Assembly: GCA_964016885.1 (NCBI GenBank) | Contig: OZ024740.1 | Location: 270,072,001-270,136,000 of the forward strand | Length of the DNA stretch: 64,000 nucleotides | From: Eledone cirrhosa | Taxonomy: Eukaryota | Reading direction: 5' to 3' | Notes under the pieces: model-generated | What the model was told of the DNA's origin: nothing | The model's database searches: none | What the model saw: the letters and a program-made list of their open reading frames with translations, nothing else | In this document: positions 33,867 through 64,000 of the stretch, one piece after another | Position numbering within the stretch: position 1 is the stretch's first letter | Layout of the letters: every line of letters starts with the position of its first letter | Translations under genes and position numbers: made by a program

Positions 33867-35160
33867 TACTTGGGGAGGGTCATATTTTAGTAATATTGCC
33901 AGAATTAATAACAGAACACAGTCACTGTTTGGTTGGTTTTCGCTTCTCGCTTCTGTGTCTTTTATATCGGTAATCTAACTTACTCGGTCCTCAATGTTGC
34001 CATTGACTGACCGACGGTCAAAAATAATACAGATACAATATAGACACAAACACATATATATAGTTTATCATAAATCTTTCGTTGCACATCTGCAACATCG
34101 TCAGTGGTGTTATATCTTCCTCCTGTTGCATTGTATGTCTACGCCATTTTTATTCAGTCTGTCTATATATATATTTATTTATTTGCTTGTTTGTTTATTT
34201 TATTTTGTCTTCTTTGCGCATGCGTTTGCGTGTGTGTATCGTGTTTTGTTGACTAGTGTGTGTTTATGTGCTTGTTGTTATTGTGCTTGTGTATTTATTT
34301 ATTTATTTATTTATTTTATTTTATTTACTTATTTATACTTCTCTTAGGTCAGTGTTGTTTGTTTGGGTGTTGTTGTTATTCCATTCATTTTTTCTGTTTA
34401 GCCTTGGTCTTCTAATTTCTATTTCACTGCCCTCTCTGATTTGCCTATCTGCTGGGTCATTTCTATGTTTAGATATTATTCTAATTTCTATGTTCTCTAT
34501 GTTACCGTCATGTTGTCTAGCATGTTCGTATAGTACTGACCCGTTTTTTCGTCCTTTTAGTTCCCCCCAGTGTTGGTCTATCCTTTCACCTATGCTACGA
34601 GCTGTCTCACCTATGTATGTTGTTGTCATGTTTCTGCAAGTACCCTCTGTACATCTTATGCTATAGACTACGTTTCTAGTTTTACAGTTTATCCGGGGGT
34701 TCACCTTACATATGATACATTTCCTATTGGTACAGTGGGTTTTCTTAAAAGGGTAGGTTTTGCTGATCAGGGATTTTATGGTGGTTCCTGGCTTTTCTAC
34801 CACCTTTATTTTTAAGTGGTTCTTTCTCAGGGCCTTTCTAAACTGGTTAGATAATTTTCCTCCAGGGGTGGCGTCCACAAACATGACACTCTGATATCTC
34901 TGGTTGTCGTACCATGAGGTTGCTTTCCCTATCTTATGTCTAGCCCTATCTAAGCTATTCCATGATTTGCTCCTGTATAATGGGCAAATTCCTTTCATGT
35001 CCAGTTCTATGAGGGTCTTATACTTTTCCATGGCTCCTTCGTATACTCTGACTCTGTCTCTTTGGGTGTAGCCAGAGAACTGCATGCGGTTGATGAAGTG
35101 TTGGATGTGTCTTTCCATTTCTGTTGGGTCGCACATGCGGGACACATTCTTCATCACTCG
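33862..35160 (-). mobile_element. 5'-truncated Penelope-like element of a second type (ORF 34333-35157: RT thumb, Cys linker, GIY-YIG with CCHH)
   Basis: RMQFSGY, PLYR, VMFVDATPGG.L, IKVVEKPG, CTNRKCIIC..C..NVVYSIRC..C..YIGETARS..ER..QH..EH..H..RQIREG..LNRKNEW. Nematis-like (inference). Confidence 0.9.
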
Positions 35161-35223
35161 TAATTAAATTTATTGTCAAGTAGATACATTGTCTAAAGTA
35201 TAATGATTAACGCAGAGTTTTCA

Positions 35224-36899: not shown

Positions 36900-38222
36900 A
36901 GTGTTTTTTCCTGGTCTTATGGGAGGCTTGGAATGTAGACAATGCTTTATGAAGGCAATTAGAGAATAATTCATTCTTTTTGTTAATTAAGGCCTCATAA
37001 TTCTTAATAATCAACAGGGTCTCCATTGTACAAAGCGCGCAGTTACTTGATATACTTGAGTTGCGGTAAACTCCCCTATTCCGAAGTTTCGTCCAAAAAA
37101 TAAAGTATTTTAAATTTTTCTCTTTTAATGACCATATAAGCTGTGATAAAGAAGTGGATGATTTCCTCTTGGAGTTCGAAAATGAGCATTTATGGTTCGC
37201 AAATCTGGCTTTAAATGTAGAAGTCTATCCTATGTAGTTGTATGTGTTGTAATCAGTTTTTACGGTGCATTTATACACCAAATTACTATCTAAACAATTA
37301 TTTTGCAGAGGGCAATCAATTTTATTTCTACAATTACATTTTGGTTTATTATCATTTATGTTAACGCTATTATTAAGATCATTATGCTGATTATGCTTTA
37401 GAATTTTAGTGTTTAATTTAACAATGTTTTGGGCCATATTCATAGTTGTAGAATAAGACAATTTAATGGTGTGTCTATTAAAAATGGAATGGTATTTATG
37501 TTGAGTAGGGAAAGAGGTGTCCAAAGCGTTAAAGAATAATTTTGCAATTGGTGTTCTAACTGCTACCGAAGCAGGGGGAGGGGGGACTATATGACTGATT
37601 TAGTTCCAGTTCTTTTCCTCAATTTGTTTGGCGTATGGGTGTTTGAATTATAATTATTAGAGTTTCGTTTATATATGCCATTATTTTTATCAGGATTAAA
37701 ACTTGGATTATTATTATCTACATATTCTATATTATTCTCATATCCTGCTCGTTTTAACGCATTCTTGTAGTATGCTGCCTTATCATCAAATATAGCTTTA
37801 TTGGCTGATATTCTATTGATGCGTTTTTGCACACAATTTACTATACCCTTTTTTTTACAGATTTAGGGTGATTGGAATGGTTACTAACATAGTTTAAGTT
37901 TTCATTGGGCTTATGAAAAAGGTAATAAAAGCCAGAGTTTAAGTTAAACGTAACGTCTAGGAAATTAACTATTTTGGTACCATTTTCTACTTCTAACTTA
38001 AGGTCATACATTTTAAAGAATTCTATTATACTTTTCTTTACTCTACTTAGTTCAATATTGTTGTGTTTGACCACCGTAAATAAAATGTCGTCCCTATATA
38101 AACCACCGGTAATCTCTGGCGGTTTTCTATTTATCGTATTTAATATAAAAATTCTCAGAAGATCTGTGATTTGCGCAGAATCAGATGCCCCCATAGTAAT
38201 ATCAAAGTTTCTATTTCTATCT
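36900..38222 (-). mobile_element. Decayed Penelope-like element: RT core through GIY-YIG
   Basis: FDITMGASDSA, GGLYRDD, VNFLDVTFNL, SNHP, KRINRIS, ALKRAGY, IKLSYS, CNCRNKIDCPLQNNC, LVY..YIG; several frameshifts and stops. Confidence 0.9.
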
Positions 38223-38224
38223 GA

Positions 38225-38341
<117 letters not shown>

Positions 38342-39968
38342 ACTTCCACTAAACACATATACACATATACATCAACATTCTTAATTTGATAAATAAATAT
38401 TTTTGTTCGTAGAAATCATATTGTTTGCCGTATTCATGTTTAAAACAAAGTAGAAACTCTGCTTTTCATAGTCATTGTACTGGTGAAAGTTAAGAGGATT
38501 TAAATGTGCATCATTGGACTCTAACTGCTTCAGATAAAACATTCAACCCAGTGAAAGTTTTAGAATTAATCATTGTTATAATAATCTTTTATGCACTTTC
38601 AATTGTGTTTGAAACTGTGTAGGCGAATCAGAATTTGTATTCCGTGATCTTGGAGAAAGGTTTAACTAATTAGTTATAAGGAATAATTTAGTATTATCGT
38701 ATTGATTTCAAATACCTTCTGAGTGTGTTAACGCTTTTCTTTGAAGAAAATCTATAATTTAGTATGTTCACTGGTGAAAATCACGAACACTATTATGCTG
38801 CCACATCTAAATCTTTGTTTTGTCGGCGTCCATCTTATCTAAAATTTGATCATCTCAGACGTCTATGTTTGTCACCTGGGAGGTGATAATTTTGAATCAA
38901 AGTAAGACGGGATTTTTGAAAAATACAAACATTTTGGGGGGTTTCTGTTTGTAGATAGCGTGAGATTTTAACAACAAGCTGAAAACCAATTCTAGATTCT
39001 TTCAATGTAATTGTAATGGTGTCTCCATATGGATTTCTCTTTAGTTGTGATGAAATTTCTCCTTTAAGTAATCCATTGTCCGCGTTCAAGCTCTTGAATT
39101 TTTTCTTCTCGTATATCATTGATTCATTTCTATATTGGACACGTTTACTTAGTATACGCAACTTACTGACGCACTTCTATAGATTGCTTCATGTATATTA
39201 TTTAATGGAGTATAACATTTCGGTTAGATTCTTTGTAGTATATCTGAAGTAGGTGATGACAAAAAAACTTACTTATATTACAAATAGATACTCATTGACA
39301 AATATGTAATAGAATAGTAGAATCCTCTTTGCATTTCACTTAGAATTCAGAAGCCTCTTTCTCCAGTAAAATGATATTACGTTAGTAAAGAGTTTCAGAA
39401 TTCAGTAGAAAAAGGACTATTCATTCAATCAACAATACACCATTTATTGGTTTAGACGATGCGCATTCAGTTATTCAATCAACTAATCTAGATGTTACCC
39501 ATTACTTAATATAAACAGGACTGAGAATTCCGCATAACCTTTTATTCCTTAAGTCATTCAAGAATTTCAAGTGCTGGTGCAGTAAGGCGCCCATTTCAGC
39601 ATTCGCTCATCAGAAGAAAAGAGGTAGGTGTAAAAGCAAACCTCATTATGTTCAATTTGGTAATTGTTCCAACATTTACATATCGTCGTGGATCTTGTGT
39701 AATAACTGAAAGAATATGATCGCGAATACAAGCACCCAAAATGACCGATTCTAATGACTAAACACAATAAAAGAGTAAAAGACTATTACATATATCAACA
39801 AATTTATGTTATTTATAAGGTACATAATTATAAGAAAAATGTTTGATTTATCGTATAATTAAACTATAATAAGGGAAGTTTGAAAACCTTTATTTATCTA
39901 ATGCTAAGTGAGCTAACTACCATCCACCCCAACTGTTGATTAAATAGCCTCACCAACCCGCAATCGGC

Positions 39969-45435: not shown

Positions 45436-48400
45436 TTGATTAAGTGTGCAACCCTTTTCCTTAGCAGCACAGAGAGGGGGTGCTCCTTTACACTTCCACT
45501 TTTCCACCTACAGGCTGATAAAGAGAGAAGGTCCATTCACACGGGCCATTCTCGCTACTTTCACCCACCTTTCATAAAACTTGCTGGGGTAGAGCACCTC
45601 TCTCTCCATTCTGATCCTTCTCTTAAAATGGTATTTAAAGAAAAGGACCAGTTGTTGGCCGGAGAGAAAAGTGTCCGACCTCAGCCCTTTCAAACGTGTC
45701 CACCATACCACCATACCTCTTTCACCATGGCTATTACACAGAAGAATACCGCCTCTCCTTCATTTTTGAAGGGGGAGGCGGCTTGATCGTTACAATGGAC
45801 TCAGTGGTCAACCGGATTGGTCGCACCCGTGACAGCAGGCGTTCGACGTAGCCTCACAGATCGGCAACGCCCAAGCAGTGTACCAATGCGTGCGCAACGG
45901 TTTTCTCATCGCGCACGCATCTGGGACAGATTTTTTTCGAGGGGTCTTTACCCGGGCGCCCGTGACTGTAGAGCTTTTCTCGAACGGGCAGCGCCTCTCG
46001 GTAGCACTGCCAGGCCAGGGACCTCTGGAAGTTGTCCATAGGTCCCGGGCCAAATGTCCTCCCGAATAGGCTGGCCAGTTCGTCTTTCTCCAGGCCTAGG
46101 GCTTGTCCGAGGGCGTCGTCGCACCTACTAACCACAAGCCCTCTATAGAAGGACGAGGTGGAGTCTCCACCGATAGCCGGGTCCGCCTGCCCGAGAGCCG
46201 TGAGCGCCTGGGCACACTCGGTGTGCCAGGCGCCCAGTTTTATCGGTCTTTGCTTGACCCAGGACTGCAGCTCGGTCTTGGAAAGGCTCGCCTCACAAAC
46301 GGGGCCCACACCGGTTGACAGGTGAGGAATACCTGGAGGTGCCGTAGCCTTAATGTGTGTTTACGCATCAGCAGCCACGGCATCCCCAGCCCTCCTTTCG
46401 AAGGGTGTTGACAGCAGATGGATCTCCTCGCCAATGGAGCCCGCTTTTTCCAAAGGAATTGGAACATTGCGCGCTCCATTTTGGTGAGCGTTTCCCTTGG
46501 GCAAGGCACGACGGTCAGGCGGTAATAGATGACGGACGTTATATAAGCGTTCGCCACCTCCGCCCGACCTTTCAGGGATAGTTTGCACTCAGCCCACTTC
46601 CGCGTCAGCGCAAACATCCTGTTCGATACCTCACCCCAGTTCTTCTCCACCTGGAGGTCTGGCCCGAACCAGACCCCTGAGCAACTTCACCGGGCCCTCC
46701 GTCCAACGTCCGACGACGCCGTTGGAGGCCATCGGTTTGCCCCTCCATTTGCAGTTGCAAACCGACTGCCTTGTCCCGGTTCAGCTTTGCCCCTGTAAAC
46801 GTTTCGTATTCCTCTGTATTCCGAGGCGCTCGACACTATTACTGTCCCGTCATCGGCATAGGCCGACACCGCTTTCCGCAATCCCGGTTCCAAAGGGATG
46901 CCCTGTAACAACTCCAACTTCCGTAGCAGTGGCTCTAGGGCCAATACATACAGAAGGGAGGAGAGAGGGCATCCCTGTCGGATGGACCGCGTGATTTCGA
47001 ACGGCTCCGAGAGGTAGCCGTTCACCTTGACCCTATAGCAGATGCGGCCGCTGTGCATGGTAGTGATCCAGCCCCTGAAATTTTTTCCGAAACCTGCCGC
47101 CTCTAGCACCGCATCCTGGTTACGATGGTTGACCATATCGAACGCTTTAGATTGATCCAAGTTGATCAGGGCCCCGCCAAAGCTGGGTTCGTTCCCAACC
47201 CTCTCTATGATGTATCGCATGAGATGGAGTTTGTCGTGAATGGACCTGGACGAGATGGCGCATGTCTGCGCATCTCCCACCAGGTTGCCCACGACAAGCG
47301 TCAACCTCTTTGCTAGCACCTTGGCCAAAATCTGTAACTCTGTATTTAGCAGAGTCATGGGCCTGAAATTATTTATATCGTCCCCCTTGTTCTCGTCGTT
47401 CCTCACTAGCTAGACTACGCCCTTGGTCAGAGAACAGGGAATTCTCCCGTTCTGTTGCCAGTTGCAGTAGACCGCTTCGAGGAGATCGAAGAACAAGTCC
47501 GGCATACTTAAATACAGTTCGTATGGAAGACCATCGAGTCCCGGAGATTTGCGTCTGCCGCATTGGCTCAGCACGTCCCCTATTTCAGCAGCTGAGATCG
47601 GCCTCTCGCAGGAGTTCGCCTCCTCGTCTGAAAGACGCGGCAGGCCGTCGGGGTATGGACCGAGGTTCAAAACCCCATCTGGCCCCTCGTCCCTTCCGAA
47701 CAATCGGGCAAAGTGCCTTTGAAAGGCCTCGCACATCTGCTTAGGTTCAAGGATCACCCGTCATACTGGTTTCGCAAAGACCGGATAGTGGATCTAGTCC
47801 CACTTTTGGCGTCTGTCGCGCGGGCCCAGCTAACAGCTTTGTTCCCTGGTTTCTCAGAGCACGTATTTTGCTTCGGACAACGCAGCCTTCGTGTTTCGCG
47901 TCGAAGAACTGGCCCAAGGCCTTTTTCGATGCTAGCACTCTGGCTACGTCGCCGCTTCTAATTGCCTCTTCTACACTATCGACCAACTCCCTTTCCTTCC
48001 TATTTCTAACTGAGACTGACTCCTTACTAACTCCTATTAAAGCTACTCTAATCTCTCTTATAAGAGAGCCCCACTACCAACTGTTGACGATGGCGCCCGT
48101 GAACCGCTCCTTAATTAATGTATTAATCCGGTTCCTGTAAGCTTTACTTGCCGGTAAGGACAAGTTAAGCTTCCAGTAACCGGGTCCCTGTCTATGCGTT
48201 CTATCAAGGTTGACCATGGAGGTCACTAACTTGTGGTCCGAATAGCCAACCATGAGCATTTTTGGACAACTTAAACAGTCCCTATCCTTATTTCTAACTA
48301 AGAACCTATCTAGGTACGATCTAGATTGACCGCTATGGTTTCTCCAAGTCTAGGTTGGCACAGTCGGAAACTCTAGTCGATATCTATCGGCCAGGTCGAA

Positions 48401-51080
48401 TCGGCCGATTAACCCCTTGAGGCAGTTACAACCTCCTCTATCAGGACATCCCCCTACATAGTCCCAACGAGCATCTAGGATACCATTCCAGTGCCCCACT
48501 AAAAGCAAGGAGAGGGACGTCCCTAGAAAAGTCTCCAGACGATGGAAGAAGACCTGCCGCGTTGACCCAAAAGGGCCGTAGACGGCGACCAGCCTAAAAG
48601 CTCCGCCTTCACCACTGCCAATGTCCAGAACCACTAGTCGACCCTCCGGGTCCAAGTGTACCGTCTGTGTAACGAGACCCAGTTGTTTTTACAGCAGAAC
48701 GACAAACCCACCCCCACCTTCGGGCTGACAGAGAGATGCGTGCATCTTAAAGTCATGAAAGGTGGAGGCCAGCTGTCGCACGCTGCTGATCCGGGCCTCG
48801 CAAATAACCATCACATTTATACATCGTGACCTGAGGTCAATTAGAAGCATCGCTTGCTTCCAAGGTGAGCCAAGGCCACGCGCATTTAGACAACATATTC
48901 AAACACAGCCATGTTGGTAGTAAAGAGAAAGGCACTTACCTTTCTGCGTCTCGGGGACCGGGCCGCACAACTTCCATGGGGATGGGGGATGGGTTGTTGG
49001 GTGGGGTGGTGGCTTGTCGAAGTGTAGGGGCATCAGTGTGTGGTGGGGTTGGGGTATTTGGAATTGTGCGGGTGTCTGGGGGAAAAAGTTTTAGGAGGAC
49101 ACGGTTAATGGGTCTGACGCAGGGGGGCCCCACGTCCTCTTTAAAAGTGTCTTTTAACGTTTTGTAAATGTCCATTGGGGCGTTTATCATTTTTAGATGG
49201 GGAAGCCCCGTTGCTTGTGCGTAATTCGAACCTTCAGTTTTTATTAAGTTGTTATTATAAATAACGTTTAACAGTTTTTTGTTTATTGTATTTATGTAAG
49301 TGTATGCATATTTTTCTTTTGGAGTGATGTTTTTTTGTTTGCTGTTGTGTTTTTTTGTGTTGATGTCTGTGTTATGTATTGGGCAGGGGTTGTTTGTATT
49401 TGTGTTCCTGTGGTGTGTTTTCTTTTTTTTCTTTTAACTTTATGAAAGTCCCCCCCCCCTCGTCTGACGACGAAAGGGGGTGGTCTTCCGTATTCGAGGG
49501 GAGGGGTTCATTTTCGGCTCGTGTTTGTGGTGTGGGTGTTATTGTATTTGTTTTCTGTGTGGGGGGATGGGGGGATTGTTTTCAGTTGTGTTTTAACTTG
49601 TGGTGTTAGTTGTTTTTGTGGTGGTGGTGGAGGTTGTTTGGTAGTGTTGTAGTTGTTGGTGGGGGCAGAATTGGTGTTTTTTGTTTGCTTGGGAACAGGC
49701 AGCCTTCGGGTGACCTCTGCCACCACAGAGGTAACAAGCGGGTCGTCTACCCTCCACTGTGATGTGCAAGTAGGCAAGCCCATCCAGCAATATGCGGTCG
49801 GGGATCCTAGCAATTTGTTCTGGCTGCATTTGCACCAGAACTTGCAGGCTAGTTCCACCGAGCACGTTGCTGGAAGACTTACCTACCGAATTTACTGCAT
49901 CCTCTTTCAAGTCGAAGAGGCCACGCAGTACCGCCCAGAAATCAATATCTGGATCGATACTGTGTATGGTCAATCTTTTTGTTCTTCTTCCCAAATAAGT
50001 GGGGAAGAAGGTAAATAAGGGGGACACAATTGGGGCCAGGGATTGTTTTTCGGCCGTCAATTTATCTTTCATTCGGATGGATAGACTACCGTAGAGTCTA
50101 TCCTTCCGAATGAATAAAATGTTTTTCAGATGATCTTTTAAAGCCAGTTCAATCTCTGTTTATGTGAGTTGTACTGGCTTACGGGTTTTGTTGGATATTG
50201 TCCTATAAATAATATTTTTTAATCTATATTCCTTTTTTAGCTCTGGGGGAGAATTTAAAGAAAATAGACCATTCTCCTCCAAAGTTATATACTTCCGTGC
50301 ATTTTCCATTTGCTGGGCCATGTTTGAAATGTCAATAGAAGTATATAACTGTTTTTTTGGTAGTTTGAGCGAACGTCATTTTGTTCGCCCCCTCTGTGTT
50401 TACATTTGTCGACATGTGGTTGTTTTCTTGTTTTTTGTTGATTTTTCGTTGTGTTTGTGTTATTTATGTTGGTGTATGCGTTCACATTTTTTTTCCCGTT
50501 GGGGTTAGACTCCATTTTTACAAAAAGTTCACTTATATTTTCAGTATCCGAGAGACTTGTAGTCACAGCTACTACTTCTCTTTCACCTTTGCTGGTGGGC
50601 TTGGCACCGTGATAAGTCGAAACGGCATCCATTAATGTTGGCAATTTCTCCGAGTCAACTTTTTTCACATTTTTTTCATTAGGGTTAGGCTCCATTTTTT
50701 CAATGTTTCTAATAATAATTATTCTCTCACGGGGTCGATAAAATAAAGTACCAATAATGCACTGGGTAATTGCTGGCCCTGTGTCTAAAGTAGAAACAAT
50801 TATTCTTTCAGTAGGGATGCTTGTTGCCTCCGCTACCCGCTCTCCTTCAGTTTGTTTAATGGCTTCCATTACCACTAGAGTAGAGACAATTACAAGATTT
50901 TTAGGATGGAAGAATTTCACCCCGAAAAGGTGTGAAATAAATTAACCCTAATGTCCGAAGACCCAGGCAAGGGGGTTAATTAACACAATAACGCAAGAAT
51001 ACAGACAAACACTTACTGTTAACACGTAATATATCCAATAATCGAGGAGCCGATGTGAAGCACGTCTATACCATCCGGAG
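45436..51080 (-). mobile_element. Tx1-clade LINE copy 1, nearly full length and decayed (ORF1 ~48936-50869, ORF2 ~45508-48912); 3'UTR truncated
   Basis: Fragments with CYLCGGRGHPKAAC, YSDHKLV, GPGYWKLN, LDQSKAFD, QGCPLS, AYADD, CPRC..H..C; many frameshifts. The 5' end abuts a GATA tract at 51079-51095. Confidence 0.95.
50730..50802 (+). mobile_element. 5'-truncated SINE inserted in ORF1 of LINE copy 1
   Basis: cggggtcgataaaataaagtacc...agtagaaac with a 13-bp TSD aattattctYtca (50717-50729 / 50798-50810). Confidence 0.85.
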
Positions 51081-51421
51081 ATAGACAGATAGATATTACG
51101 GGCGAGCATAGAATCTACGTGGACCTCTTATAATATAATAAAATGACGACGAATAAGATTAGAAGTATTGCAAATGATTAGAAGTATTGCAATCTGATTA
51201 ATAGTGTTCCGGTGAGGACGTGGCGGCATCTGTTAAACATTGTGTATTTAGAACAACATTATCCAATTAAAGACATCAAGTAGTCATTTGGCTCCTATTT
51301 TTATCTGATCGTGTGACTGCGTAGCCGCTCTCATTCTAGTATCTATTACGACAAATTTTAGCAAGAATGTGTTATATAATTCGAAGCGTCAATCTGTGTG
51401 TTTGTCAGTACTTATATTTAG

Positions 51422-51556: not shown

Positions 51557-52067
51557 GTAAGTTCCCTGAAATATAACTCTGTAACGCAGGCTTGATATTT
51601 ATGATTAGGCAATATCAGATTAAAACAAGGTATAGTTGAATACAATTAGAAATGGTACCAGAGATAATCAGGTGAGGGCAGACTAACATTTACCATGTAG
51701 CGTTCCAAATAGAAGACATATCAAATTCCATTTCACTTGTAATTATATGAAAAAACATTAGCCTTAATGAAAATTCCTCTCACGAAATGCAGGAGTGAGA
51801 TATCTGAAATTTAAATTGATTAAATATTAAATGTAGTTGCAGAGCAGGGAGGCTGATGATCGGTTTAATTATTCAACATGTACCCAACACAACATAAAGA
51901 GGATATTGTTTGCAGTGTCATTTAAAATAACTTTGTAAACTTCACGCTATATACTATACGAAGATGATGTCCTAAATACACTCTATGGAGTATATGTATA
52001 TATATATACACCCCCCCCCCTCACACCCACACACATATATAGAGATAGATAGGTAGATAGATAGATA

Positions 52068-55000
52068 ACTTTCTATTTATTTGCCAGCAGGGCATAAAAG
52101 ATTGGGACAAATACAAGGGGGCTACATACATTTAAAGGACGTGTATAAAAAATAACAAATCAAATTCAACAATCGAAGTCCTCAATAGGGTGGCGGCGTT
52201 GACACACCCCTGAAAAAATATGCAACCCTTCTCCTCAGGAGCACAAAGAGTGGGTGCTCCCTTCCTCTCTTCCTTCTCCTCCTCTCTCACCTACAGGCTG
52301 ATATAGAGAGAAGGCCCATTCACTCGGGCCATTCTCGCCAATATCAACACCTTTCATAAAACTTGCTGGGGTAGAGCACCTCTCTCTCCATTCTGATCCT
52401 TCTTCTAAAATGGTATTTGAAAAAAAGGACCAGTTGTTGGCCGGAGAGAAAGGTGTCTGACCTCAGCCCTTTCAACCTCGTCCACCATACAACCGCTTTT
52501 GCCATAGCTATCACACAGAGGAAAACCGCGTCTCCTTCGTTTTTGAAGGAGGGGGGGGGCGGTTTGATCGTGACAATGTACTCGGTGGTCAACCAGATTG
52601 GTCCCACCCACGACAGTAGTCGTTCCACATAACTCCACAGGTCAGCAACGCCCGGGCAGTGTACTAATGCGTGCGCAACGGTTTCCTCGTCACGCACGCA
52701 TCTCGGACAGATCTTTTTTGCAGGGTCCCTACCCGGGCGCCCGTGTCTGTAGAGCTTGTCGCGAACGGGTAGAGCTCCTCGGTAGCACTGCCAAGCCAGG
52801 GACTTTTGGAAGTTGTCGATCGGTCCCGGGGAAAACGTCCTACCGAACAGACTGGCTAGTTCGTCTTCCTCCATGCCCAGGGCTTCAGCGAGAGCGGCGA
52901 CGCACTTGCTCCGCACCAACCCTCTATAGAATGTTGAGGTGGAGTCTCCACTGATTGCCGAATCCGCTTGCCACTTTTCTCAGTCTTTGCTTGACCCAGG
53001 ATTGAAGCTCGGTGAGTGAGACGAGTCTCGGAAAGGCTCGCCTCACAAAAGAGGCCCACACCGGTTGACCAGTGAGGAATACCTGGAGGTGCCGTAGCCT
53101 TAATGCGTGTCTACGCATCGTTAGCCACGGCATCCCCACCCTCCGTTCGAAGGGTGTTGACAGCAGATGGATTTTCTCACCAAAGGGGCCCGCTTCTTCC
53201 AAAGGAATCGGAAGAGCACGCGCTCCATTTTGGCGAGCGCTTTCGCTGGGCAAGTCACGACGGTGAAGCGGTAGTAGATGAAGGACACTATATAAGTGTT
53301 CGCCACCTCCGCTCGACCTTTCAGGGATAGTTTGCACTCGGCCCACTTCTGGACGAGTGCAAACACCCTGCCCGTTACCTCGTCCCAGTTTTTCTCCACC
53401 TGGAGGTCCGATCCGAACCAGATCCCGAGCAGCTTCACCGGTTCCTCCGTTCAGCGTCTAACGACGCCGTTGGAGGGCATCAGTTTGCCTCTCAACGTTC
53501 CGAGTTGCAAACTGACGGATTTGTCCCGGTTAAGCTTGGATCCTGTAAACCTTTCGTATTCCTCCAGTAAAGTGCCGATCTGCCCGATTTCCGAGGCGCA
53601 CGACACCATTACTGTCACGTCATCGGCGTAGGACGACACCGCTTTCCTCAATCCCGGTTCCAAGTCGATGCCCTGCAACAGCTCCAACTTCTGCAGTAGT
53701 GGCTCGAGAGCCAGCACATACAGAAGGGAGGAGAGAGGGCAACCTTGTCGGATGGATCGCGTGATTTGGAACGGCTCCGAGAGGTAGCCGTTTACCTTGA
53801 CCCTCAAGCAGGTGTTGCTGCTGTGCATTGCAGCAATCCAGCTCCTGAAAAAGGGCCGAAGCCTGCCGCCGCGAGCATCGCATCCAAGTACCGATGGTTG
53901 ACCCTATCGAACGCCTTAGATTGATCCAAGTTGATCAGGGCCCCACCAAAGCGGGGTTCATTCCCTTCCCTCTCTACGATGTATCGCATGAGGTGGAGGT
54001 TATCGTGTATGGACCTGGATGGGATTGCGCATGTCTGCGCTTCTCCCACCAGGTTCCCGACGACAAGCGCCAAACTTTTCGCCAAAACCCTTAACTCTGT
54101 ATTTAGCAGAGTTATGGGCCTGAAGTTATCTATGTCATCCCCCTTGTTCTCGTCTTTCCTCACTAGCGTGAATACGCCCTTAGTCACAGGACTGGGAATT
54201 CTCCCGTTCTGTTGCCAGTTGCAGTAGACCGCCTCAAGGAGATCGGAGAACAAGTCCGGCATCGCTACATAAAGTTCGTATGGTAGACCATCGAGACCCG
54301 GAGATTTGAGTTTGCCGCATTGGCTCAGCGCTTCCCCTATTTCAGCGGCTGAAATCGGCCTTTCGCAGGACTTCGCCTCTTCTTCCGAGAGCCGCGGCAG
54401 ACCGTCGAGGTATGGACCGAAATCCATGGCCTCCCCCGGCCCACCACCCCTCCCGAACATTCGTGCAAAGCGCCGCTGAAAGGCTGCGCTCATCCGCTCA
54501 GGTTCAAGGATCACACGTCCATCCTGGTCCTTCAAAGACCGAATCGTGGACTTGTTTCCCCTTTTTGCCTCTGTCACTCGGGCGCAGCTAACAGCTTTGG
54601 CTCTCTCCTTACCCAGAGCACGTATTTTACTCCTGACAACGCAGCCCTCGTAATTCGCGTTAAAGAACTGGTCTAGGGCCGTTCTTGACGCCAGCACGCC
54701 GGTCACTTTGCCACTCCTAATCGCCTCTTCTACTCTATCTATCAATTCCCTTTCAGTTCTATTCCTATCTAATGCTAATTCCTGACTAAAACCTATCGAT
54801 TCTATTCTAATGCTCTCGAGAGAGAGCCCCACCACCTGCTGTTGAAACTTTCCCCCCGCCAACCGCTGCTTAACTAAAATGCTAATCCGCTTACTGTAAG
54901 CTTTGTTTATCGGTAAGGATAAGTTTAGCTTCCAGTAACCGGATCCTTGTCTATGGGTTCTATCAAGGTTGACTACCCGGTCACTAACTTGTGATCCGAA

Positions 55001-57650
55001 TAGTCAACCATGAACATTCGTGGACAGCTTAATATGTTCCTATCCTTATTTTTAACTAAGAACCTATCTAGGTACGACCTAGATGTTCTGCTAAGATTAG
55101 TCCACGTCCACAGTAGCACAGTCGAAAAATCTAGTCGATATCTATCGGCCAGATCAAATCGGCCGATTAACTGTTTAAGGTTGTTACACCCCCCTCTATT
55201 GGGACATGCCCCTACATAGTCCCAACGTGCATCCAGGATACCATTCCAGTCCCCCACTAAAAGCACGTCTAGACCCACCAGTCAACCCTCCCGGTCCAGG
55301 TGTACCTTCCGTGTTGTGAGGCCCAGGTGTCTTCGCAGCAGAACGACAACCCCGCCCCCACCCCCGACTGACAGAGAGATGCATAGATCTCAAAGTCGTC
55401 GAAGATGGGAGCCAGTTGGTGCTCGCTGCTGATCCTGGACTCCATTCTGTGCGACCTGCGGTAATTAAGAGTTTGCCCTGCTTCCAGGACATCCCCAGGC
55501 CGCGCATATTTAAACATCCAACTCTTATAACAGCCATGTAGGTGGTGAATTGTTAAAGTGGAGAAAAAGGAAAAGACACCTACCTCTCCTTCTCCTGGGA
55601 ACCAGGCTGCACAATTTCCATGGGGGTGTCGGAGGGGTGTTTGGTGGTGGTTTTGGATGTGGTGGGGACATCAGTGTGTGGTGGAGTGGGGGTGTTTGGT
55701 GGGGGAGGATTGTCTGGGGTGGTGGTGGGGAAACATTTCAAAGGACGCAGTTGATAGGTCTAGTACAGAGGTTCCCCACGTCCTCGGGAAAGTTTTGTTT
55801 GAGCATTGCGCAGGTGTCCCTTGGGACCCTAATCATTTTTAAATGCGATTTATTCGCCGCGTTGGTGAACATTTTCCCTTCTGTTTCCACCGAAGGGTCT
55901 TTGTCCATTGTTTGTACAAGTGTTTTGTTGTTTGTGTTGATGTATGTATACTGTTTTTGTTGTGTTGTGTTTGTTTTTGTTTGTTCTTGTGTGTTTGCGT
56001 TTTGTAGTATGTGTTATGTTTTCGGGATGGGTGTTTTTTTTTGTTTGTGATGTTTGTGATGTTTGTGCTGGTGGTTGTGTGTTTGTGCATTTTTGTGAAT
56101 GTGGTGTCTTCTTTTCTTTCTTTTACTGGTTGAAAGGGTTCTCCCTCGTCGTCACTGGGTGACGTTCATACGGGGTCCTCGTCCGTGTTGTTGGGGAGGG
56201 GTATATTTTGGGGTTTTGTTGTGGTTGCTTTTGAATTTGTTTTAGGTGGGGGGGTTGGGTGGGACAGTGTCTTGTGTTGTTATTTTTTCTTGTTGTTGTT
56301 GTTGTTGTTGTGGGGGTGGTGGTGGTGGTGGTGGTGGTGGCGGTGGTTGTGTTGTTGTGTTTGGAGTGGACAGAAGCGTCCTTTTTTTTGGGGGGGGGGG
56401 GCATTTAAACGACAGGAAGCCCTCAGGTGACCACTTCTTAAACAGTGGTAGCATGAAGGCCGCCTGCCCTCAACAGAAATGTTTATGAAGGCGACTCCAT
56501 GCAGGGACACACGCTTCGGTATTCTTGCTATCCGTTCTGGTCTCATTTGGACCAGAACTTCAAGGCTATTGCCGCCGAATACGCCCCCGGTGGATTCGCC
56601 TATCGAAAGGATTGTGTCCTCATCTTCTAAGAATGCCATTAGCACCCACCAAATGCTCGCATTTGGCCTGATGCCTGAGATTCTTAACGTTTGAGTTCTT
56701 TTCCCCAAATATGTGGGGAAAAAGATGTATGCTTTGGATACAATTGGCGACACAGAATATTTCCGTGCCGCCAATTGGTCTTTCATTAACACAGATATGC
56801 TTCCATATAGTTTCCCTTTCTGTATGAAAGCGATATCTTTCCATGCACTATTTAGGACCCGCTCAATTTCGCTTTGGGATAAATGAGCCGGTTTCCTAGT
56901 TATGTGGGAAATTGTTCTAAAGATTATTGTCCTCAGGACTGTGTCTCTTCCAATTTCTTCTCTTCGGGGGAGGTAATTGTAAATTCCCCACCTACTCCGA
57001 AAGTTACACAATTTCTTGCTTCTTTTAGCAATTTCTTGGCATTTGTGATATCCAGTGCCTTGTATGTCTGCGTTTCTCGGACCGCATGTGCAAAACGGAC
57101 TCCAGTTGTGGGTCCGTTTTCTTTCGTGTTGTTGTTGTTATCATTGTTGTTGTTGTTATTCGTGTTGACTTCCTTTTTTCCTTTGTTGGTGTTGTCATTA
57201 TTGCTGTTGTTGGTTGTGTTGTTATTGTCATTGTTGCTGTTGTTGGTTGTGTTGTTATTGTCATTGTTGTTCTTGTTTGTGTAATTGTAACTTTTGGGGT
57301 TTTCACCCATTTCCACAAATGTTTCTTTTAATTCCGTGTTCATGGTGTCTTTTTCGGGAGTTAGGAGAGAATGCTTAGAGCGTTGTGCTGCTACCTTCTC
57401 TCTAACACTTTCCTTGGGGGCCTGGTATGTGTCGTATGCGATGTATTAATGGCGACTTTTCATAGACAAATTATAACTATTAAATTTCGCCCCAAAAAGG
57501 GGCGAAATTTATTTTAACCAACGTCTGCAGGCCCAGGCGAGGGGTTAAATAAAACAAATAACAAGTTACTTAACAAACCTACCGCTTCTCGTAACAAATA
57601 TCCGACAAAATGCAGGAGCGAAACAAAAACACGTCTATCGTCTCCGAAGA
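52068..57650 (-). mobile_element. Tx1-clade LINE copy 2, full length and decayed (ORF1 ~55580-57343, ORF2 ~52291-55537)
   Basis: Same domain series with frameshifts and deletions; GATA tracts at both ends (52043-52067, 57657-57678). Confidence 0.95.
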
Positions 57651-57678
57651 TATATATAGATAGATAGATAGATAGATA

Positions 57679-58530
57679 TATTTCTTTATTAGCCACAGGG
57701 GCACAAAAGAAGGGGACAAATACAAAGGGGGAAGTTTACATACAATAAAAACGTGTAAAATGTTATCACAGATGGAATTTAAAAGTTAGTCGATTTTCCC
57801 CAATAGAGGGAGACAGTTTATATGGGTAACACAGACCCCCGAAAAAAATGTGCAACCCTCATCTCCAGGAGTACGAAGAGCTTGTACTCCTTTCCTCTCC
57901 TCCTCCTTTTCCTCAACCTACAGGCTGATATAGAGAGAAGGCCCATTCACTCGGGCCATTCTCGCCACTTTCACCCACCTTTCATAAAACTTGCTGGGGT
58001 ACAGCACCTCTCTCTCCATCCTGATTCTTCTTCCAAAGTGGTATTTGAAAAAAAGAATCAGTTGTTGGCCGGAGAGAAAGGTGTCTGACCTCAGCCCTTT
58101 CAACCTTGTCCACCATACAACCTCTTTCGCCATAGCTATCACACAAAGGAAAACCGCCTCTCCTTCGTTGTTGAAGGAGGGTGGCGGTTTGATCATGACA
58201 ATGGACTCGGTGGTCAACTGGATTGGTCCCACCCGCGACAATAGTCGTTCTACATAGCACCACAGGTCAGTGACGCCCGGGCAGTGTATGAATGCGTGCG
58301 CGACGGTTTCTTCGTCTCGCACGCACCTCGGACAGATCTTTTTTGCAGGGTCCCTGCCCGGGCGCCCATGTCTGTAGAGCTTGTCTCGAACTGGTAGAGC
58401 TCCTCGGTAGCACTGCCAGGCCAGGGACTTTTGGAAGTTGTCCATCGGTCCCGGGCGGAAGGTCCTACCGAACAGACTGGCCAGTTCATCTTCCTCCACG
58501 CCTAGAGTTTCACCGAGCGCGTCGTCGCAC
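57679..58530 (-). mobile_element. Tx1-clade LINE copy 3, 5'-truncated (ORF2 C-terminus plus 3'UTR)
   Basis: The open ORF2 C-terminal frame includes CPRCVRDEETVAHAFIHC; GATA tracts on both sides. Confidence 0.95.
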
Positions 58531-58568
<38 letters not shown>

Positions 58569-58832
58569 TATTTCTTTTATTTGCCACTAGGGCATCAAAA
58601 GTGGGACAAGTACAAAGGGGGGAGTTTACACAAAAAGGCGTCCTCAATAAGGAGGAGGCAATAACAAAATATAAAAATAAAATAAGATATAACAAAAAAT
58701 AAAATTTTTAACAAAATCCTCAATAGAGAGGAGGCGCCTTGGGGGGTCGCACATCCCCCCGAAAAAAGTGTGCAACCCTTCTCCTCAGGAGCACAGAGAA
58801 GGGGTGCTCCCTTGGTCTTTCATCTTCCTCAC

Positions 58833-61800
58833 CTATAGTCTGATGTAGAGTGAAGGCCCATTCACACGGGCCATTCTCGCCACTTTCACCCATCTTTCAT
58901 AGAAACGGCTGGGGTGCAGCACCTCTCTCTCCATCCTGATCCTTCTTCCGAAATGATATCGGAAGAAACGGACCAGTTGTTGGCCAGAGAGAAAGGTACC
59001 CGACCTCAGTCCTTTCAGACGCGTCCACCATACAACCTCTTTCGCCATGGCTATTACGCACAGAAACACCGCCTCTGCTTCATCTTTGAAGGGGGGAGGC
59101 GGCTTGATCATTACAATAGACTCGGTGGTCAACCGGATCGGTCCCACCCTTGACAGCAGTTGTTCGACATAGCCCCACAGATCGGCTACGCCCGAGCAGT
59201 GTACTAATGCGTGTGCAACGGTTTCCTCGTCGCACACGCATCTGGGACAGATCTTTTTGGCGGGGTCCCTACCCGGGCGCCCGTGTCTGTAGAGCCTTTC
59301 TCGAACGGGTAAAGCCCCTCGGTAGCACTGCCAGGCCAGGGACTTCTGGAAGTTGTCCATAGGTCCCGGGCTGAATGTCCTACCGAACAGGCTGGCCAGT
59401 TCGTCCTCCTCCATGTCTAGGGCTTCTCCGAGGGCGTCGTCGCACCTGCTGCGTACCAGCCCTCTATAGAATGTTGCGGTGGAGTCTCCACTGACAACCG
59501 GATCCGCCTGCCAGAGGGCGGTGAGCGCCTGGGCACACTCAGTGTGCCAGGCGCCCAGTTTTCTCGGTCTTTGCTTGACCCAGGATTGCAGCTCGGTGAG
59601 TGAGACGAGTCTGGGAAAGGTTCGTCTCACAAACGAGGCCCACACCGGTTGTCCGGTGAGGAATACGTAGAGGTGCCGTAGCCTTAATGCGTGTTTACGC
59701 ATCATTAGCCACGGCATCCCCAGCCCTCCTTTCGAAGGGTGTTGACAGCAGATGGATCTCCTCACCATAGGAGCCCGCCTCTTCCAAAGGAATTGGAAGA
59801 GCGCGCGCTCCATCTTGGTGAGGGTTTCCCTTGGGCAGGGCACTACGGTCAGGCGGTAGTAGATGACGGACGCTATGTAGGTGTTCGCCACCTCCGCCCG
59901 ACCTTTCAGGGATAGTTTGCAACTGGCCCACTTCTGGGTCAGTGCAAACACCCTGTTCGTAACCTCCGCCCAGTTTTTCTCCACCTGGAGGTCCGGTCCG
60001 AACCAGACACCGAGCAACTTCACCGGGCCCTCCGTCCAGCGTCCGACGACGCTATCGGAGGGCATCGGTCTGCCCCTCCACGTGCCGAGTTGCAAACCGA
60101 TCGACTTGTCCCGGTTCAGCTTAGCCCCTGTGAACTTTTCGTACTCCTCCAGTAAGGTGCCGACCGCCTCGATTTCGGAGGCCGTCGACACCATTACTGT
60201 CACGTCATCGGCGTAGGCCGACACCGCTTTCCGCAATCCCGGTTCCAAAGGGATGCCCTGCAACAACTCCAACTTCCGCAGTAGTGGCTCGAGAGTCAAC
60301 ACATACAGAAGGGAGGAGAGAGGGCACCCTTGTCGGATGGACCGCGCGATTTTGAACGGCTCCGAGAGGTAGCCGTTCACCTTGACCCTAGAGCAGATGC
60401 GGCTGCTGTGCATAGCAGTGATCCAGCCCCTGAAAACGGGTCCGAAGCCTGCCGCCGCTAGCACCGCATCCAGGTAACCATGGTCGACCCTATCGAACGC
60501 CTTAGATTGATCCAAGTTGATCAGAGCCCCACCAAAGCCGGGTTCGTTCCCAACCCTCTCTATGATGTATCGCATGAGGTGGAGGTTGTCATGGATGGAC
60601 CTGGACGGGATAGCGCATGTCTGCGCATCTCCCACCAGGTTGCCCACGTCAAGCGCCAACCTCTTTGCTAGCACCTTGGCCAAAATCTGTAACTCTGTAT
60701 TTAGCAGTGTTATGGGCCTGAAGTTACTTATTTCGTCCCCCTTGTTCTCGTCCTTCCTCACTAGCGTGACTACGCCCTTGGTCACAGTACAGGGAATTCT
60801 CCCGTTCTGTTGCCAGTTGCAGTAGACCGCCTCGAGGAGATCGGGGAACAAGTCCGGCATAGCTAGATATAATTCGTAAGGAAGACCATCGAGACCCGTG
60901 GATTTGCGTTTGCCGCATTGGCTCAGCACGTCCTCTATCTCAGCGGCCGAAATCGGCTCCTCGCAGGACTTCGCCTCCCTGTCCGAGAGGCGCGGCAGGC
61001 CGTCGAGGTATGGACCGAAGTCCACGTTCCTAACCGGCTCCCCGCCCCTCCCGAACAGTCGGGCAAAGTGCCTTTGAAAGGCCTCACACATCTGCTTAGG
61101 CTCAAGAATCGCCCGTCCATCCAGGTCTCGCAAAGACCGGATGGTGGATTTAGTTCCACTGTTGGCCTCTGTCACGCGGGCCCAGCTAACAGCTTTGGTC
61201 CCCTCGTTCCCTAGAGCACGTATTTTACTTCGGACAACGCAGCCTTCGTGCTTCGCGTCGAAAAACTGGCTCAAAGCCGTTCTCGACGCTAGCACTCTGG
61301 CCACGTCGCCGCTTCTAATTGCCTCTTCTACTCTATCTATTAGCTCCCTTTCCTTCCTATTCCTATCCGCAGCTAGAACCTTACTAAATTCTATCGAGAC
61401 TACTCTAATCTCTCTCTTTAGAGATACCCACCACCTGCTGTTGACGATCGCTCCAGTCAACCGTTCCTTAACTAACGTACTAATCCGAATCCTGTAGGCT
61501 CTACTTGCCGGCAAGGACAAGTTGAGCTTCCAGTAACCGGGGCCCTGTCTATGAGTTCTGTCAAGGTTGACCATGCAGGTCACTAATTTGTGGTCTGAAT
61601 AGCCAACCATGCGCATTTTTGGACAACTTAAAAAGTCCTTATCCTTAATTCTAACTAAGAACCTATCTAGGTACGACCTAGATGATCCGCTACGATTTGC
61701 CCAAGTCCAGGTTGGCGCAGTCGGAAAATCTAGTCGATATCTATCGGCCAGGTCAAATCGACCGATTAACCCTTTGAGGCTATTACACCCCTCTCTATCG

Positions 61801-62270
61801 GGGCAGGCCCCTACGTAGTCCCAGCGTGCATCTAGGATACCATTCCAGTCCCCCACTAATAGCAAGGAGCGGGACGTCCCTAGAAAAGTCTCCAGACGAT
61901 GGAAGAAGTCCGGCCGCATTGACCCGAAAGGGCCGTAGGCGGCTACCAACCTAAACGCTCCGCCTTTACCACTGCCAAGGTCCAGAACCACTAGTCGACC
62001 CTCCGGGTCCAAATGTACCATCTGTGTTGCGAGACCCAGATGTTTTTGCAGCAGAACGACAACTCCACCCCCACCTCCGGGCTGACAGAGAGATGCGTGC
62101 ATCTCAAAGTCATCAAAGGTGGGGGACAGCTGTCGCACGTTGCTGATCCGGGCCTCGCAAATAACCATCACATCTATACGTTGTGACCTGAGGTCATTTA
62201 GAAGCATTGCTTGCTTCCAAGTTGAGCCCAGGCCACGCGCATTTAAACAGCCTACTCTTAGCATAGCCAT
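58833..62270 (-). CDS. LINE ORF2p: APE endonuclease, reverse transcriptase, C-terminal CCHC (1145 aa from the first ATG)
   Basis: CLNARGL, ICEAR, VGDWN, SYLDRF, SDH, GPGYWKLN; NFRPITLLN, LDQSKAFDRV, QGCPLS, AYADDV, KLLGV; CPRC..ETVAHALVHC. Confidence 0.95.
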   Translation of the reverse strand: MAMLRVGCLNARGLGSTWKQAMLLNDLRSQRIDVMVICEARISNVRQLSPTFDDFEMHASLCQPGGGGGVVVLLQKHLGLATQMVHLDPEGRLVVLDLGSGKGGAFRLVAAYGPFGSMRPDFFHRLETFLGTSRSLLLVGDWNGILDARWDYVGACPDREGCNSLKGLIGRFDLADRYRLDFPTAPTWTWANRSGSSRSYLDRFLVRIKDKDFLSCPKMRMVGYSDHKLVTCMVNLDRTHRQGPGYWKLNLSLPASRAYRIRISTLVKERLTGAIVNSRWWVSLKREIRVVSIEFSKVLAADRNRKERELIDRVEEAIRSGDVARVLASRTALSQFFDAKHEGCVVRSKIRALGNEGTKAVSWARVTEANSGTKSTIRSLRDLDGRAILEPKQMCEAFQRHFARLFGRGGEPVRNVDFGPYLDGLPRLSDREAKSCEEPISAAEIEDVLSQCGKRKSTGLDGLPYELYLAMPDLFPDLLEAVYCNWQQNGRIPCTVTKGVVTLVRKDENKGDEISNFRPITLLNTELQILAKVLAKRLALDVGNLVGDAQTCAIPSRSIHDNLHLMRYIIERVGNEPGFGGALINLDQSKAFDRVDHGYLDAVLAAAGFGPVFRGWITAMHSSRICSRVKVNGYLSEPFKIARSIRQGCPLSSLLYVLTLEPLLRKLELLQGIPLEPGLRKAVSAYADDVTVMVSTASEIEAVGTLLEEYEKFTGAKLNRDKSIGLQLGTWRGRPMPSDSVVGRWTEGPVKLLGVWFGPDLQVEKNWAEVTNRVFALTQKWASCKLSLKGRAEVANTYIASVIYYRLTVVPCPRETLTKMERALFQFLWKRRAPMVRRSICCQHPSKGGLGMPWLMMRKHALRLRHLYVFLTGQPVWASFVRRTFPRLVSLTELQSWVKQRPRKLGAWHTECAQALTALWQADPVVSGDSTATFYRGLVRSRCDDALGEALDMEEDELASLFGRTFSPGPMDNFQKSLAWQCYRGALPVRERLYRHGRPGRDPAKKICPRCVCDEETVAHALVHCSGVADLWGYVEQLLSRVGPIRLTTESIVMIKPPPPFKDEAEAVFLCVIAMAKEVVWWTRLKGLRSGTFLSGQQLVRFFRYHFGRRIRMEREVLHPSRFYERWVKVARMARVNGPSLYIRL

Positions 62271-62294
62271 GTTGGTGGTGAAGAGAAAAGGCAC

Positions 62295-64000
62295 TTACCT
62301 CTCTGCGTCCCGGGTATCGGGCTGCACAATTTCCATTAGGGTGGGGGATGGGTTGTTGGGTGGGGTGGTGGTTTGTGGAAGTGTGGGGGCATCAGTGTGT
62401 TGTGTGGTTGGGGAGCTTGGAGTTGTGAGGGTGTTTGGGGAGGGGGTGGGATAGTTTTTTAGGAGGACGCGGTTAATGGGCCCGACGCAGGGGGGACCCA
62501 CGTCCTCTTTAAAATTGTTTTTTAAAGTTTTATAGGTGTCCTGTGGGGCCTTAATCATTTTGAGGTGGGGGAAATCCCCTGCCTGGGTGAAGTTAGGCCC
62601 TTGTGTTTTTATTAGATTGTTGTTGTACACAATGTTTAACAGTTTTTTGTTTCTTGTATTTATGTATGTGTATGCATGTTTTTGTTTTTGTGTGGTGTTT
62701 TTTGTTTGCTGTTGTGAGCTCTTTTGTGTTGGTGTCAGTGTTATGTTTTGGGGAGGGTTTTTTTTCATTTGTGTGTCTGAGGTGTGTTTTCTTTTTTTTC
62801 TTTTGATTGTGTGGAAGTGCTCCTCCTCTTCTGACGACGAACTAGGGTCATCTTCCGCGTTGGAGGGGAGGGGTATATTTTCGGGTTGTGTTTGCGGTAC
62901 GGGTGTTTTGGAAATTGTTTTTGTTTTTTGAGTGGAGGGGATGGGTTGGACATTGTTTTGTTTTGGTTTGAGCTGTGGTGGTTGTTTTTGTAGTGGTAGT
63001 TGTGGTGATTGTGTTGGTTGTGCAGTTGTTGGTGGTGTAGGCAGGATTGGGGTTTTCTTATTAAGTTGGGGACAGACAGCCCTCAGGTGACCTCTGGTTC
63101 CGCAGAGGTAACACGAGGGCCGTCTACCCTCAACGGTAATGTTGATGAAGGTTAGATCATCCAGTATGACGCGTTCAGGGATCTGGGCGATCCTTTCGGG
63201 CCTCATTTGAACTACAAGTTCGAGGCTCGTTCCACTGAACGCGTCACCCGATGCCTTTCCCATGGACACCAGCATGTCATCCTCCAGGTCCAGAAAACCT
63301 GTCAAAACCCACCATATGTCCATAATCGGCAGGATGGTGTGGATTTTTATTTTTTGTGTTCTTCTACCCATGTACGTAGGGTAGAAGGTGTATGCGGTGG
63401 ATGTGATTGGTTTGATGGACAGTTTCACTGCTGTGTCCCTGTCCTTCATGAGAATGGATAGACTCCCGTAGAGTCTATCCTTCTGAATGAAGGTGATGTC
63501 CTTCATGACGTCTTTTAAAACCAGCTCTATCTCGCTCTGTGATGGTTGAGCTGGTTTTTTACTTTTGTTCGAGATTGTCCTAAACATGACCGTGTTTAGG
63601 AGTCTCTGGCTTTTTAGTTCCGGGGGGGAATGGATTGTGAATGAACCATTTTCCCCGTACACTATATATTTTTTCGCATCCGCCAGTAGCTCCTTCGCTT
63701 TTGTTATATCTACTGGCAGATAGTCGAGGGTTTTCCTTGTCGTCTCGGCGAAGGAGAAATTTTGTTTGTTTGTGTTGTTGTTGTCGTTGGTGGTGTTGTT
63801 GTTATCATTGTTGTTGTTGTCACCGTTATTGGTCTTGTTGTTGTTATTGTTATTGTTATTGGTGTTGTTTTCGTCCGTCGCATTGTTGTTGTTGTTGCTG
63901 TTGCTGCTGGTTCTTTGGGTTGTTTCCATGGCAACGTCAAGTTGTCTGTTAACAGGTGGAGAGAATTCTTCCTCTGGCTGACCTATCTTCTTGACCTCTG
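62295..64000 (-). CDS. LINE ORF1p: Asn-rich N-terminus, central domain with CCHC zinc knuckle, P/T/Q-rich linker, conserved C-terminal domain
   Basis: CYLCGTRGHLRAVC; acidic patch plus KRKKRK. The frame remains open upstream of the ATG at 63929 to the window edge. Confidence 0.9.
   Translation of the reverse strand, partial: EVKKIGQPEEEFSPPVNRQLDVAMETTQRTSSNSNNNNNATDENNTNNNNNNNNKTNNGDNNNNDNNNTTNDNNNTNKQNFSFAETTRKTLDYLPVDITKAKELLADAKKYIVYGENGSFTIHSPPELKSQRLLNTVMFRTISNKSKKPAQPSQSEIELVLKDVMKDITFIQKDRLYGSLSILMKDRDTAVKLSIKPITSTAYTFYPTYMGRRTQKIKIHTILPIMDIWWVLTGFLDLEDDMLVSMGKASGDAFSGTSLELVVQMRPERIAQIPERVILDDLTFINITVEGRRPSCYLCGTRGHLRAVCPQLNKKTPILPTPPTTAQPTQSPQLPLQKQPPQLKPKQNNVQPIPSTQKTKTISKTPVPQTQPENIPLPSNAEDDPSSSSEEEEHFHTIKRKKRKHTSDTQMKKNPPQNITLTPTQKSSQQQTKNTTQKQKHAYTYINTRNKKLLNIVYNNNLIKTQGPNFTQAGDFPHLKMIKAPQDTYKTLKNNFKEDVGPPCVGPINRVLLKNYPTPSPNTLTTPSSPTTQHTDAPTLPQTTTPPNNPSPTLMEIVQPDTRDAER

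Follow-up and report, generated by a model that had tools for sequence, protein, structure and literature searches.

The window analysed here is a stretch of 64,000 nucleotides (nt) from Eledone cirrhosa (assembly GCA_964016885.1, contig OZ024740.1, positions 270,072,001 to 270,136,000, forward strand), and its right-hand end holds an intact copy (copy 1) of a long interspersed nuclear element (LINE) with two open reading frames (ORFs), the second of which encodes the reverse transcriptase (RT). An earlier note, made from the letters of the window, had proposed that the whole of ORF2 is bracketed by splice signals and can be removed as an intron, leaving an RNA that encodes ORF1 only. Our comparison of subfamilies and of sequencing-run assemblies points to a conserved splice donor on the ORF1 stop codon, probably used in RNA, and to a predicted helix between the two ends of ORF2, with the acceptor at the far end a matter of prediction. 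The relevant parts of copy 1, in the direction of transcription and with a slash marking splice junctions, are as follows (UTR, untranslated region; aa, amino acids):

62295..64000, minus strand: ORF1 of copy 1 (subfamily A), 595 aa in full, with its start 82 nt past the window end and its stop TAA at 62297-62295
62293..62300, minus strand: 5' splice donor AG/GTAAGT overlapping the ORF1 stop, exon end at 62299, marked by conservation and by a contig break in sequencing run X4
62265..62292, minus strand: predicted 5' helix arm, comprising the pyrimidine-rich spacer and the ORF2 ATG context; -22 kcal/mol here (weak), strong in most subfamilies
58833..62270, minus strand: intact ORF2, 1145 aa from its ATG (62270), with APE endonuclease, RT and zinc-binding parts; candidate intron body 58840-62298
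58840..58857, minus strand: CAG acceptor of the earlier note, with pyrimidine-rich Pro-Ser-Leu-Tyr-Ile codons and CAG (58842-58840); first exon base A; not conserved family-wide
58810..58839, minus strand: last ORF2 codons and TAG/G stop, second candidate acceptor, also the purine-rich 3' helix arm
58788..58811, minus strand: local 3'UTR hairpin, found in both the minimum free energy and the centroid structure; z = -1.4 for the whole 171-nt fold
58531..58590, minus strand: 3' end, with a TAG/T candidate acceptor (exon start 58586), AATAAA at 58581, and (TATC)n tail and target

By its sequence, the element is a young and abundant L1/Tx1-type retrotransposon lacking long terminal repeats (LTRs). 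The open frame of ORF2 runs from 62294 to 58833 and matches PF03372, PF00078 and, under the curated cut-off of that family, PF13966; its closest solved chain is human L1 ORF2p (E 1e-46), with R2 at 5e-18, and its nearest named relative is a protein of Argonauta hians, 67% identical over the RT region, further relatives, known here from protein alone, being ~50% identical. The ORF1 protein (ORF1p) has an Asn-rich N-terminus, a CCHC knuckle and a Pro/Thr-rich tail; it finds no Pfam match, and its look-alikes in the Atlas carry zf-CCHC (0.92) and RBD_ZCCHC3 (0.90). Full-length copies measure ~5.8 kb, are ~99% identical and are arranged head to tail in arrays; 5'-truncated copies and a simple-repeat tail accompany the absence of LTRs, as in other non-LTR elements of this type, and (TATC)n lies directly 5' of 10 fetched copies with an intact 5' end as well as at the tails. 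The junction of copy 1 has 1255 candidate matches in the genome, the best 40 of which are all identical to it, and the full 1153-residue ORF2 frame is kept in 14 of 20 fetched copies, that of the window counted. Assignment to the Tx1 clade is probably right, and draws on the architecture and the (TATC)n target preference, no named Tx1 reference being among the relatives returned. Like Kibi and Koshi of that clade, the element combines two ORFs and an APE-RT-zinc ORF2 with microsatellite insertion and tandem arrays; unlike them, it targets (TATC)n (PMC4494074). Young L1-Tx1 families have also been reported in Octopus vulgaris (PMC13282606).

Because the four copies in the window are kin, other subfamilies were sampled as well: 195 loci (1.23 Mb, partly redundant) gave 14 clusters of ORF1-ORF2 junctions and 33 clusters of 3' ends. 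Five intact ORF2s, one per subfamily, share 67-96% of their amino acids and 52-94% of their fourfold sites; 101 of 305 such sites are identical across all five, and distant subfamilies agree at 52-58% of them. Genome searches with distant proteins returned mainly subfamily D and reached no Tx1 family below 67% identity.

The splice donor on the ORF1 stop

The four LINE copies in the window share one orientation; copy 1 is intact, copy 2 is 5'-truncated, and copies 3 and 4 are decayed. Those downstream of copy 1 are:

57652..58530, minus strand: copy 2, 5'-truncated, CAG at 57925, abutting the tail of copy 1
52037..57650, minus strand: copy 3, decayed and near full length, donor at 55583 (stop TAG), CAG at 52298, strongest helix (-47 kcal/mol); 5' end approximate
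45442..51150, minus strand: copy 4, decayed and near full length, donor at 48939, CAG at 45515, shortened 3'UTR; 5' end approximate

The three donors described in the earlier note are all present, as GAGAG/GTAAGT (62298), GAAAG/GTAAGT (48939) and GAGAG/GTAGGT (55583), and the ORF1 frame of copy 1 does end at the TAA within AG/GTAAGT, which is the sole 8/8 match to AG/GTRAGT in the 5.8-kb element. Conservation of the donor GT, which that note had put forward as a test, holds across the family: GT[AG][AG]GT is kept in 13 of the 14 junction clusters while the coding context varies, the exception being a point variant deliberately selected by one probe, and the exact 20-mer at the ORF1 end, found in 885 genome copies, is followed by G in 879 and by another base in 6. 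Among the 13 donor-bearing clusters the stop triplet at donor positions +2 to +4 is TAA in nine, TAG in three and TGA in one (confirmed as the in-frame ORF1 stop in copies 1 and 4, and assumed for the others), the exon ends in AG in 12 and in CG in one, and the spacer between donor and ORF2 ATG varies over ~20-40 nt, with the ATG itself kept in 12. Since the donor survives three stop triplets and spacer indels while fourfold sites diverge, comparison of the subfamilies indicates that it is under selection, beyond what chance would leave. As a rule for the family, stop readthrough from ORF1 into ORF2 was discarded, because an in-frame stop intervenes in copy 3 and the spacer of copy 4 is out of frame.

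It is very improbable that this is an ordinary LINE whose donor-like stop and CAG were inherited by chance, with incidental cryptic splicing at most. Common ancestry of the subfamilies would favour such an account, as would the CAG, a by-product of Ile-Ser/Arg codons, and the cryptic splice sites known in L1 (PMC5860796), but for the donor it is largely refuted by persistence through stop changes and indels against 52-58% fourfold identity. It also draws on distant metagenome relatives (mostly 21-29% ORF2 identity; 20 of 41 loci were taken as reaching the ORF2 start), in which the best donor before ORF2 scores at most 6/8 in 20 of 20, so that the conserved donor is demonstrated for the octopod LINE clade of copy 1 only.

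A second donor-like GT[AG][AG]GT lies 18-81 nt from the 5' end of every copy in which that end is defined, despite very different 5'UTRs: in subfamily A (L050, ~270 nt past the window end), in five of five newly fetched copies (L240, L241, L242, L245 and L246) and in copies 3 and 4. In subfamily A a U-rich TAG acceptor stands ~67 nt beyond it, and the number of genomic copies found spliced from this 5'UTR donor is zero. Such a site, within ~80 nt of the 5' end and never spliced in the genome, speaks for a different role of the ORF1-stop donor, namely as a landing site for the U1 small nuclear ribonucleoprotein that protects or marks full-length RNA with little splicing, the helix described below then serving control of ORF2 translation or RNA compaction. 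U1 does block premature termination in the Arabidopsis element EVD (PMC5580714), and the AUG context is predicted to pair with the ORF2 stop region. We nevertheless consider this reading unlikely: downstream of the donor, no AATAAA or ATTAAA precedes the true signal at 58581, which leaves little for U1 to suppress, and the contig break described below falls exactly at the donor.

Candidate acceptors and a predicted helix at the ORF2 ends

The four pyrimidine-rich CAG sites on which the ORF2-as-intron proposal was built (58840, 57925, 52298 and 45515) exist as described, and the interval 58840-62298 indeed measures 3459 nt. As a conserved acceptor, however, the CAG does not hold up: it occurs in only 8 of 29 well-anchored 3'-end clusters, with AAG in 5, GAG in 1 and no AG in 15 (the other 4 of the 33 clusters were mis-anchored by local deletions or duplications and excluded, and a few loci came from probes favouring AAG). 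Its tract in copy 1 has 11/15 pyrimidines, tied with eight of the 67 YAG sites and behind one, and its occurrence does not go beyond chance. TAG/G at the ORF2 stop, by comparison, is present in 26 of the 29 clusters. Two further acceptors not followed by G, the 5'UTR TAG/A and the 3'UTR TAG/T, score the same as the CAG (11/15), the latter not being seen in copies 2 and 3. The claim that donor and acceptor are matched in phase stands for subfamilies A and B, where joining adds 0-1 residue, and falls for A2, D and E, where 61-133 residues are added at the TAG or next AG. The ORF2 stop context (58826-58834, AG/GTGAGG) is also the second-best donor-like site of the element (7/8).

In 11 subfamilies the spacer and AUG context are predicted to form a helix with a segment that runs from the final ORF2 codons through the stop into the beginning of the 3'UTR, and the observed helix energy is reached by at most 4 of 200 shuffles in every case. 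Cognate arm pairs average -33.4 kcal/mol versus -28.2 for non-cognate ones (permutation p 6e-5, uncorrected for kinship), and in scans along the element over ~760 windows the cognate arm ranked first in five of nine cases, tied first in one, second in one and outside the top four in two. The helix is weakest in the youngest subfamily, A, where the 5' arm finds a better partner in the 3' arm of its sister A2 (-32.9) than in that of A itself (-22.2), a hint that the 3' end of A changed recently. One locus (L034) joins a subfamily A 5' part to an A2-type 3' end.

A contig break at the donor in one sequencing run

Six sequencing runs were available (X1-X6, type unrecorded for all; X5 and X6 from other organisms, mostly at low depth), and X5 and X6 gave nothing on the ORF1-3'UTR junction. 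X4 shares organism and study with X1-X3 and is probably an RNA run, since its contigs total 88 million letters against ~1,400 million for X1-X3. Over 62120-62620 it yields contig 6 (62299-62384) and contig 4 (62208-62328), both free of mismatches and overlapping by 30 nt, which places an assembly-graph node at the donor; after subtraction of the 8 listed of 19 contigs, the residuals in three bins fit one further footprint, 62299-62328, at depth 17.7. Contig 4 itself continues unspliced from 62328 past the donor and is not split by any branch starting with G. If the break between 62299 and 62298 is a branch, its next base must be other than G, which fits CAG/A and not TAG/G. All six genomic copies with a non-G base after the exon end continue into the intron, so that the assembly offers no DNA source for the extra contig; a single-nucleotide polymorphism or 1-nt insertion was likewise rejected as its source, since alignment would then extend into the intron, which the bin fit does not show. 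With three main-path nodes in 501 nt, a node boundary falls on the donor by chance at ~0.6%, and 62328 has no AG before it; on both grounds a branch is favoured over a merge. From this single run of unrecorded type we infer that the donor is probably used in RNA. The earlier note's proposed check for junction RNA came out in part: the contig graph of this probable RNA run is broken at the donor base itself and, read as a branch, goes on with a base other than G, and the joined ORF1-3'UTR sequence was never seen.

The same data bear on where the donor might lead. Fusion of ORF1 to ORF2 in frame, through a short intron that shares this donor and has as its acceptor an AG near the ORF2 start, is the least credible of the readings considered: a pyrimidine-rich spacer does follow the donor directly, and copy 1 has an AG shortly past the ATG, but the joints listed for X4 include none within 62120-62620, alignment of the extra contig stops at 62299, an ORF2 ATG persists in 12 of 13 donor-bearing clusters, and the spacers vary in length by amounts that change the phase. 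Use of the donor with acceptors outside the ORF2 end carries more weight, although we hold it to be unlikely. Here the donor would be joined to a 5'UTR AG, either of the next tandem copy or of the same RNA (a back-splice giving circular ORF1 RNA), to the TAG/T of the 3' end, or to host exons, so that ORF1-only RNA would arise and ORF2 would not be a defined intron. The 5'UTR TAG/A and 3'UTR TAG/T begin with a non-G base and equal the CAG in score, the copies do stand head to tail, and a 5'UTR lying outside the 58560-63680 stretch would explain why the joint is missing there. Scattered host acceptors, however, should also yield branches starting with G, and contig 4 is unbroken; the 3'UTR TAG/T is absent from copies 2 and 3; and conservation of TAG/G would be left to the helix alone.

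Within X4, another graph node at 62355-62384 has no GT at its boundary, and at 58854 thirteen contigs depart with an ORF2 end resembling CAG-less subfamily D. An apparent enrichment of ORF1 and 3'UTR in summed contig depths of X4 relative to X1 was not used: overlapping short contigs inflate the DNA run, and depth cannot rank parts of a gene.

Genomic copies, proposed mechanism and known systems

Were the spliced RNA copied back, ORF1-only copies lacking exactly the intron should be found in the genome, as the earlier note had suggested. None were detected in six probe searches (two with 0 matches, the others 0 of 6, 0 of 21, 0 of 7 and 0 of 26; G-starting joins from the subfamily A donor were probed only to the TAG, and one search had no exact denominator), and a protein search for ORF1 with a spliced C-terminus gave no match among 7059 candidates. 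For the subfamilies probed, the predicted non-autonomous ORF1-only copies are thus refuted. This does not refute splicing as such, because L1 proteins favour their own RNA in cis (PMC5860796) and an ORF1-only RNA would lack ORF2.

One locus (L252) carries an internal deletion that fuses ORF1 (62607) with late ORF2 (59336) at points other than the proposed splice sites. A 3'UTR-only copy starting at the ORF2 stop lies between two (TATC)n tracts ~300-600 nt upstream of the copy 1 5' end (L050); a similar one (L265) begins a few bases before the CAG position. Weak ORF2 matches in L106 and L119 (24-26% identity) come from another LINE family. Elsewhere in the window, open frames at 12991-13620, 30449-31156, 34333-35163 and 37841-38371 resemble pieces of GIY-YIG and RT proteins, which we take to be Penelope-like.

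In light of these results, we propose that some of the LINE transcripts undergo splicing that joins the donor on the ORF1 stop to whichever usable AG comes first at the end of ORF2, yielding an ORF1-only messenger RNA (mRNA), and that the helix tunes the split between the two RNAs: a plausible account, to which we give somewhat less than an even chance. The mRNA would keep the 3'UTR and polyadenylation signal. As acceptor we predict the CAG for subfamily A and, where a subfamily has no CAG, the TAG of the ORF2 stop; the helix, by pairing the post-donor spacer and ORF2 AUG with the ORF2 stop and the start of the 3'UTR, would hold ORF2 as a loop and tune how often it is removed. Unspliced RNA would serve as the retrotransposition template, whereas spliced RNA, without ORF2 in cis, would not be copied back. 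The purpose would be to make ORF1p in excess of ORF2p, in the way that Ty1/copia elements use their gag-only RNA. A bolder version is possible, if more doubtful: the whole RT gene would form part of a single, regulated spliceosomal intron, a co-varying helix would clamp the two intron ends, splicing would set the ORF1p:ORF2p ratio, and the youngest and most expanded subfamily would combine a weakened clamp with an exposed CAG.

A number of observations weigh against this proposal. At the ORF2 end, the CAG is missing in 21 of the 29 clusters, in subfamily E the tract is poor and TAA is the ORF2 stop, joined products gain 61-133 residues in A2, D and E, and no clear branch point was identified by eye, branch points not being scored. 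The cognate helix pair is the best in its own row in only 3 of 11 subfamilies, that of copy 1 falls outside the top four windows of the element scan, and the helix could by itself explain the conserved stop context and would cover both AGs. In X4, a single run of unrecorded type, the depth-17.7 contig is placed by its 30-nt overlap with the element, and an unrelated contig merging at 62328 would leave an identical 30-nt footprint. The 58840-62299 joint is not among the 15 of 230 joints listed for 58560-63680, even though that list goes down to a depth of 17.3, below the 17.7 of the contig; it is important to note that this list is not ranked purely by depth (two deeper joints appear only in another table) and that a variant known to occur 19 nt past the start of the 3' exon could shorten that side of the joint. 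Finally, the six probe searches returned no spliced genomic copy.

The nearest parallel is found in the Arabidopsis Ty1/copia element EVD, where splicing produces a gag-only subgenomic RNA and the donor matters more than the acceptor (PMC5580714). In both elements a U1-type donor is conserved close to where the structural gene ends, and an RNA for the structural protein only is what we propose here; EVD, however, has LTRs, and its intron is short and tied to premature termination (PMC5580714), whereas the octopod element is non-LTR, its 3.46-kb candidate intron comprises the whole of ORF2, the 3'UTR would be retained, and a start-stop helix is predicted. It would thus work like Ty1/copia gag-only RNA while not being a member of that group. 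Human L1 likewise has functional splice sites inside a LINE, including a 5'UTR donor, and its SpORF2 and SpIRE products arise by removal of 5'UTR or ORF1 sequence, some of them retrotransposing (PMC2896524, PMC5860796); unlike in L1, it is ORF2 that would be removed here, and spliced copies were not found in the probe searches. HAL1 (half-L1) elements are ORF1-only LINE derivatives of the kind foreseen in the earlier note, but they form genomic non-autonomous families (PMC5753468), of which none was found here, and the introns of TART are antisense (PMC1636488). For Tx1 and L1-Tx1 elements, splicing goes unmentioned in the accessible portions of PMC4494074 and PMC13282606, the splicing passages of the former concerning small nuclear RNAs. 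No description of an ORF2-as-intron LINE emerged from the literature searched, which excluded subscription papers and supplements.

Translational control is the usual explanation for the large excess of ORF1p over ORF2p that LINEs obtain from a single bicistronic RNA. If the proposal is true, a selected donor and a removable ORF2 would mean that a non-LTR element meets this need in the manner of retroviruses or copia. Furthermore, the host could switch off an element of hundreds of young copies, many with an intact ORF2, via one splice event.

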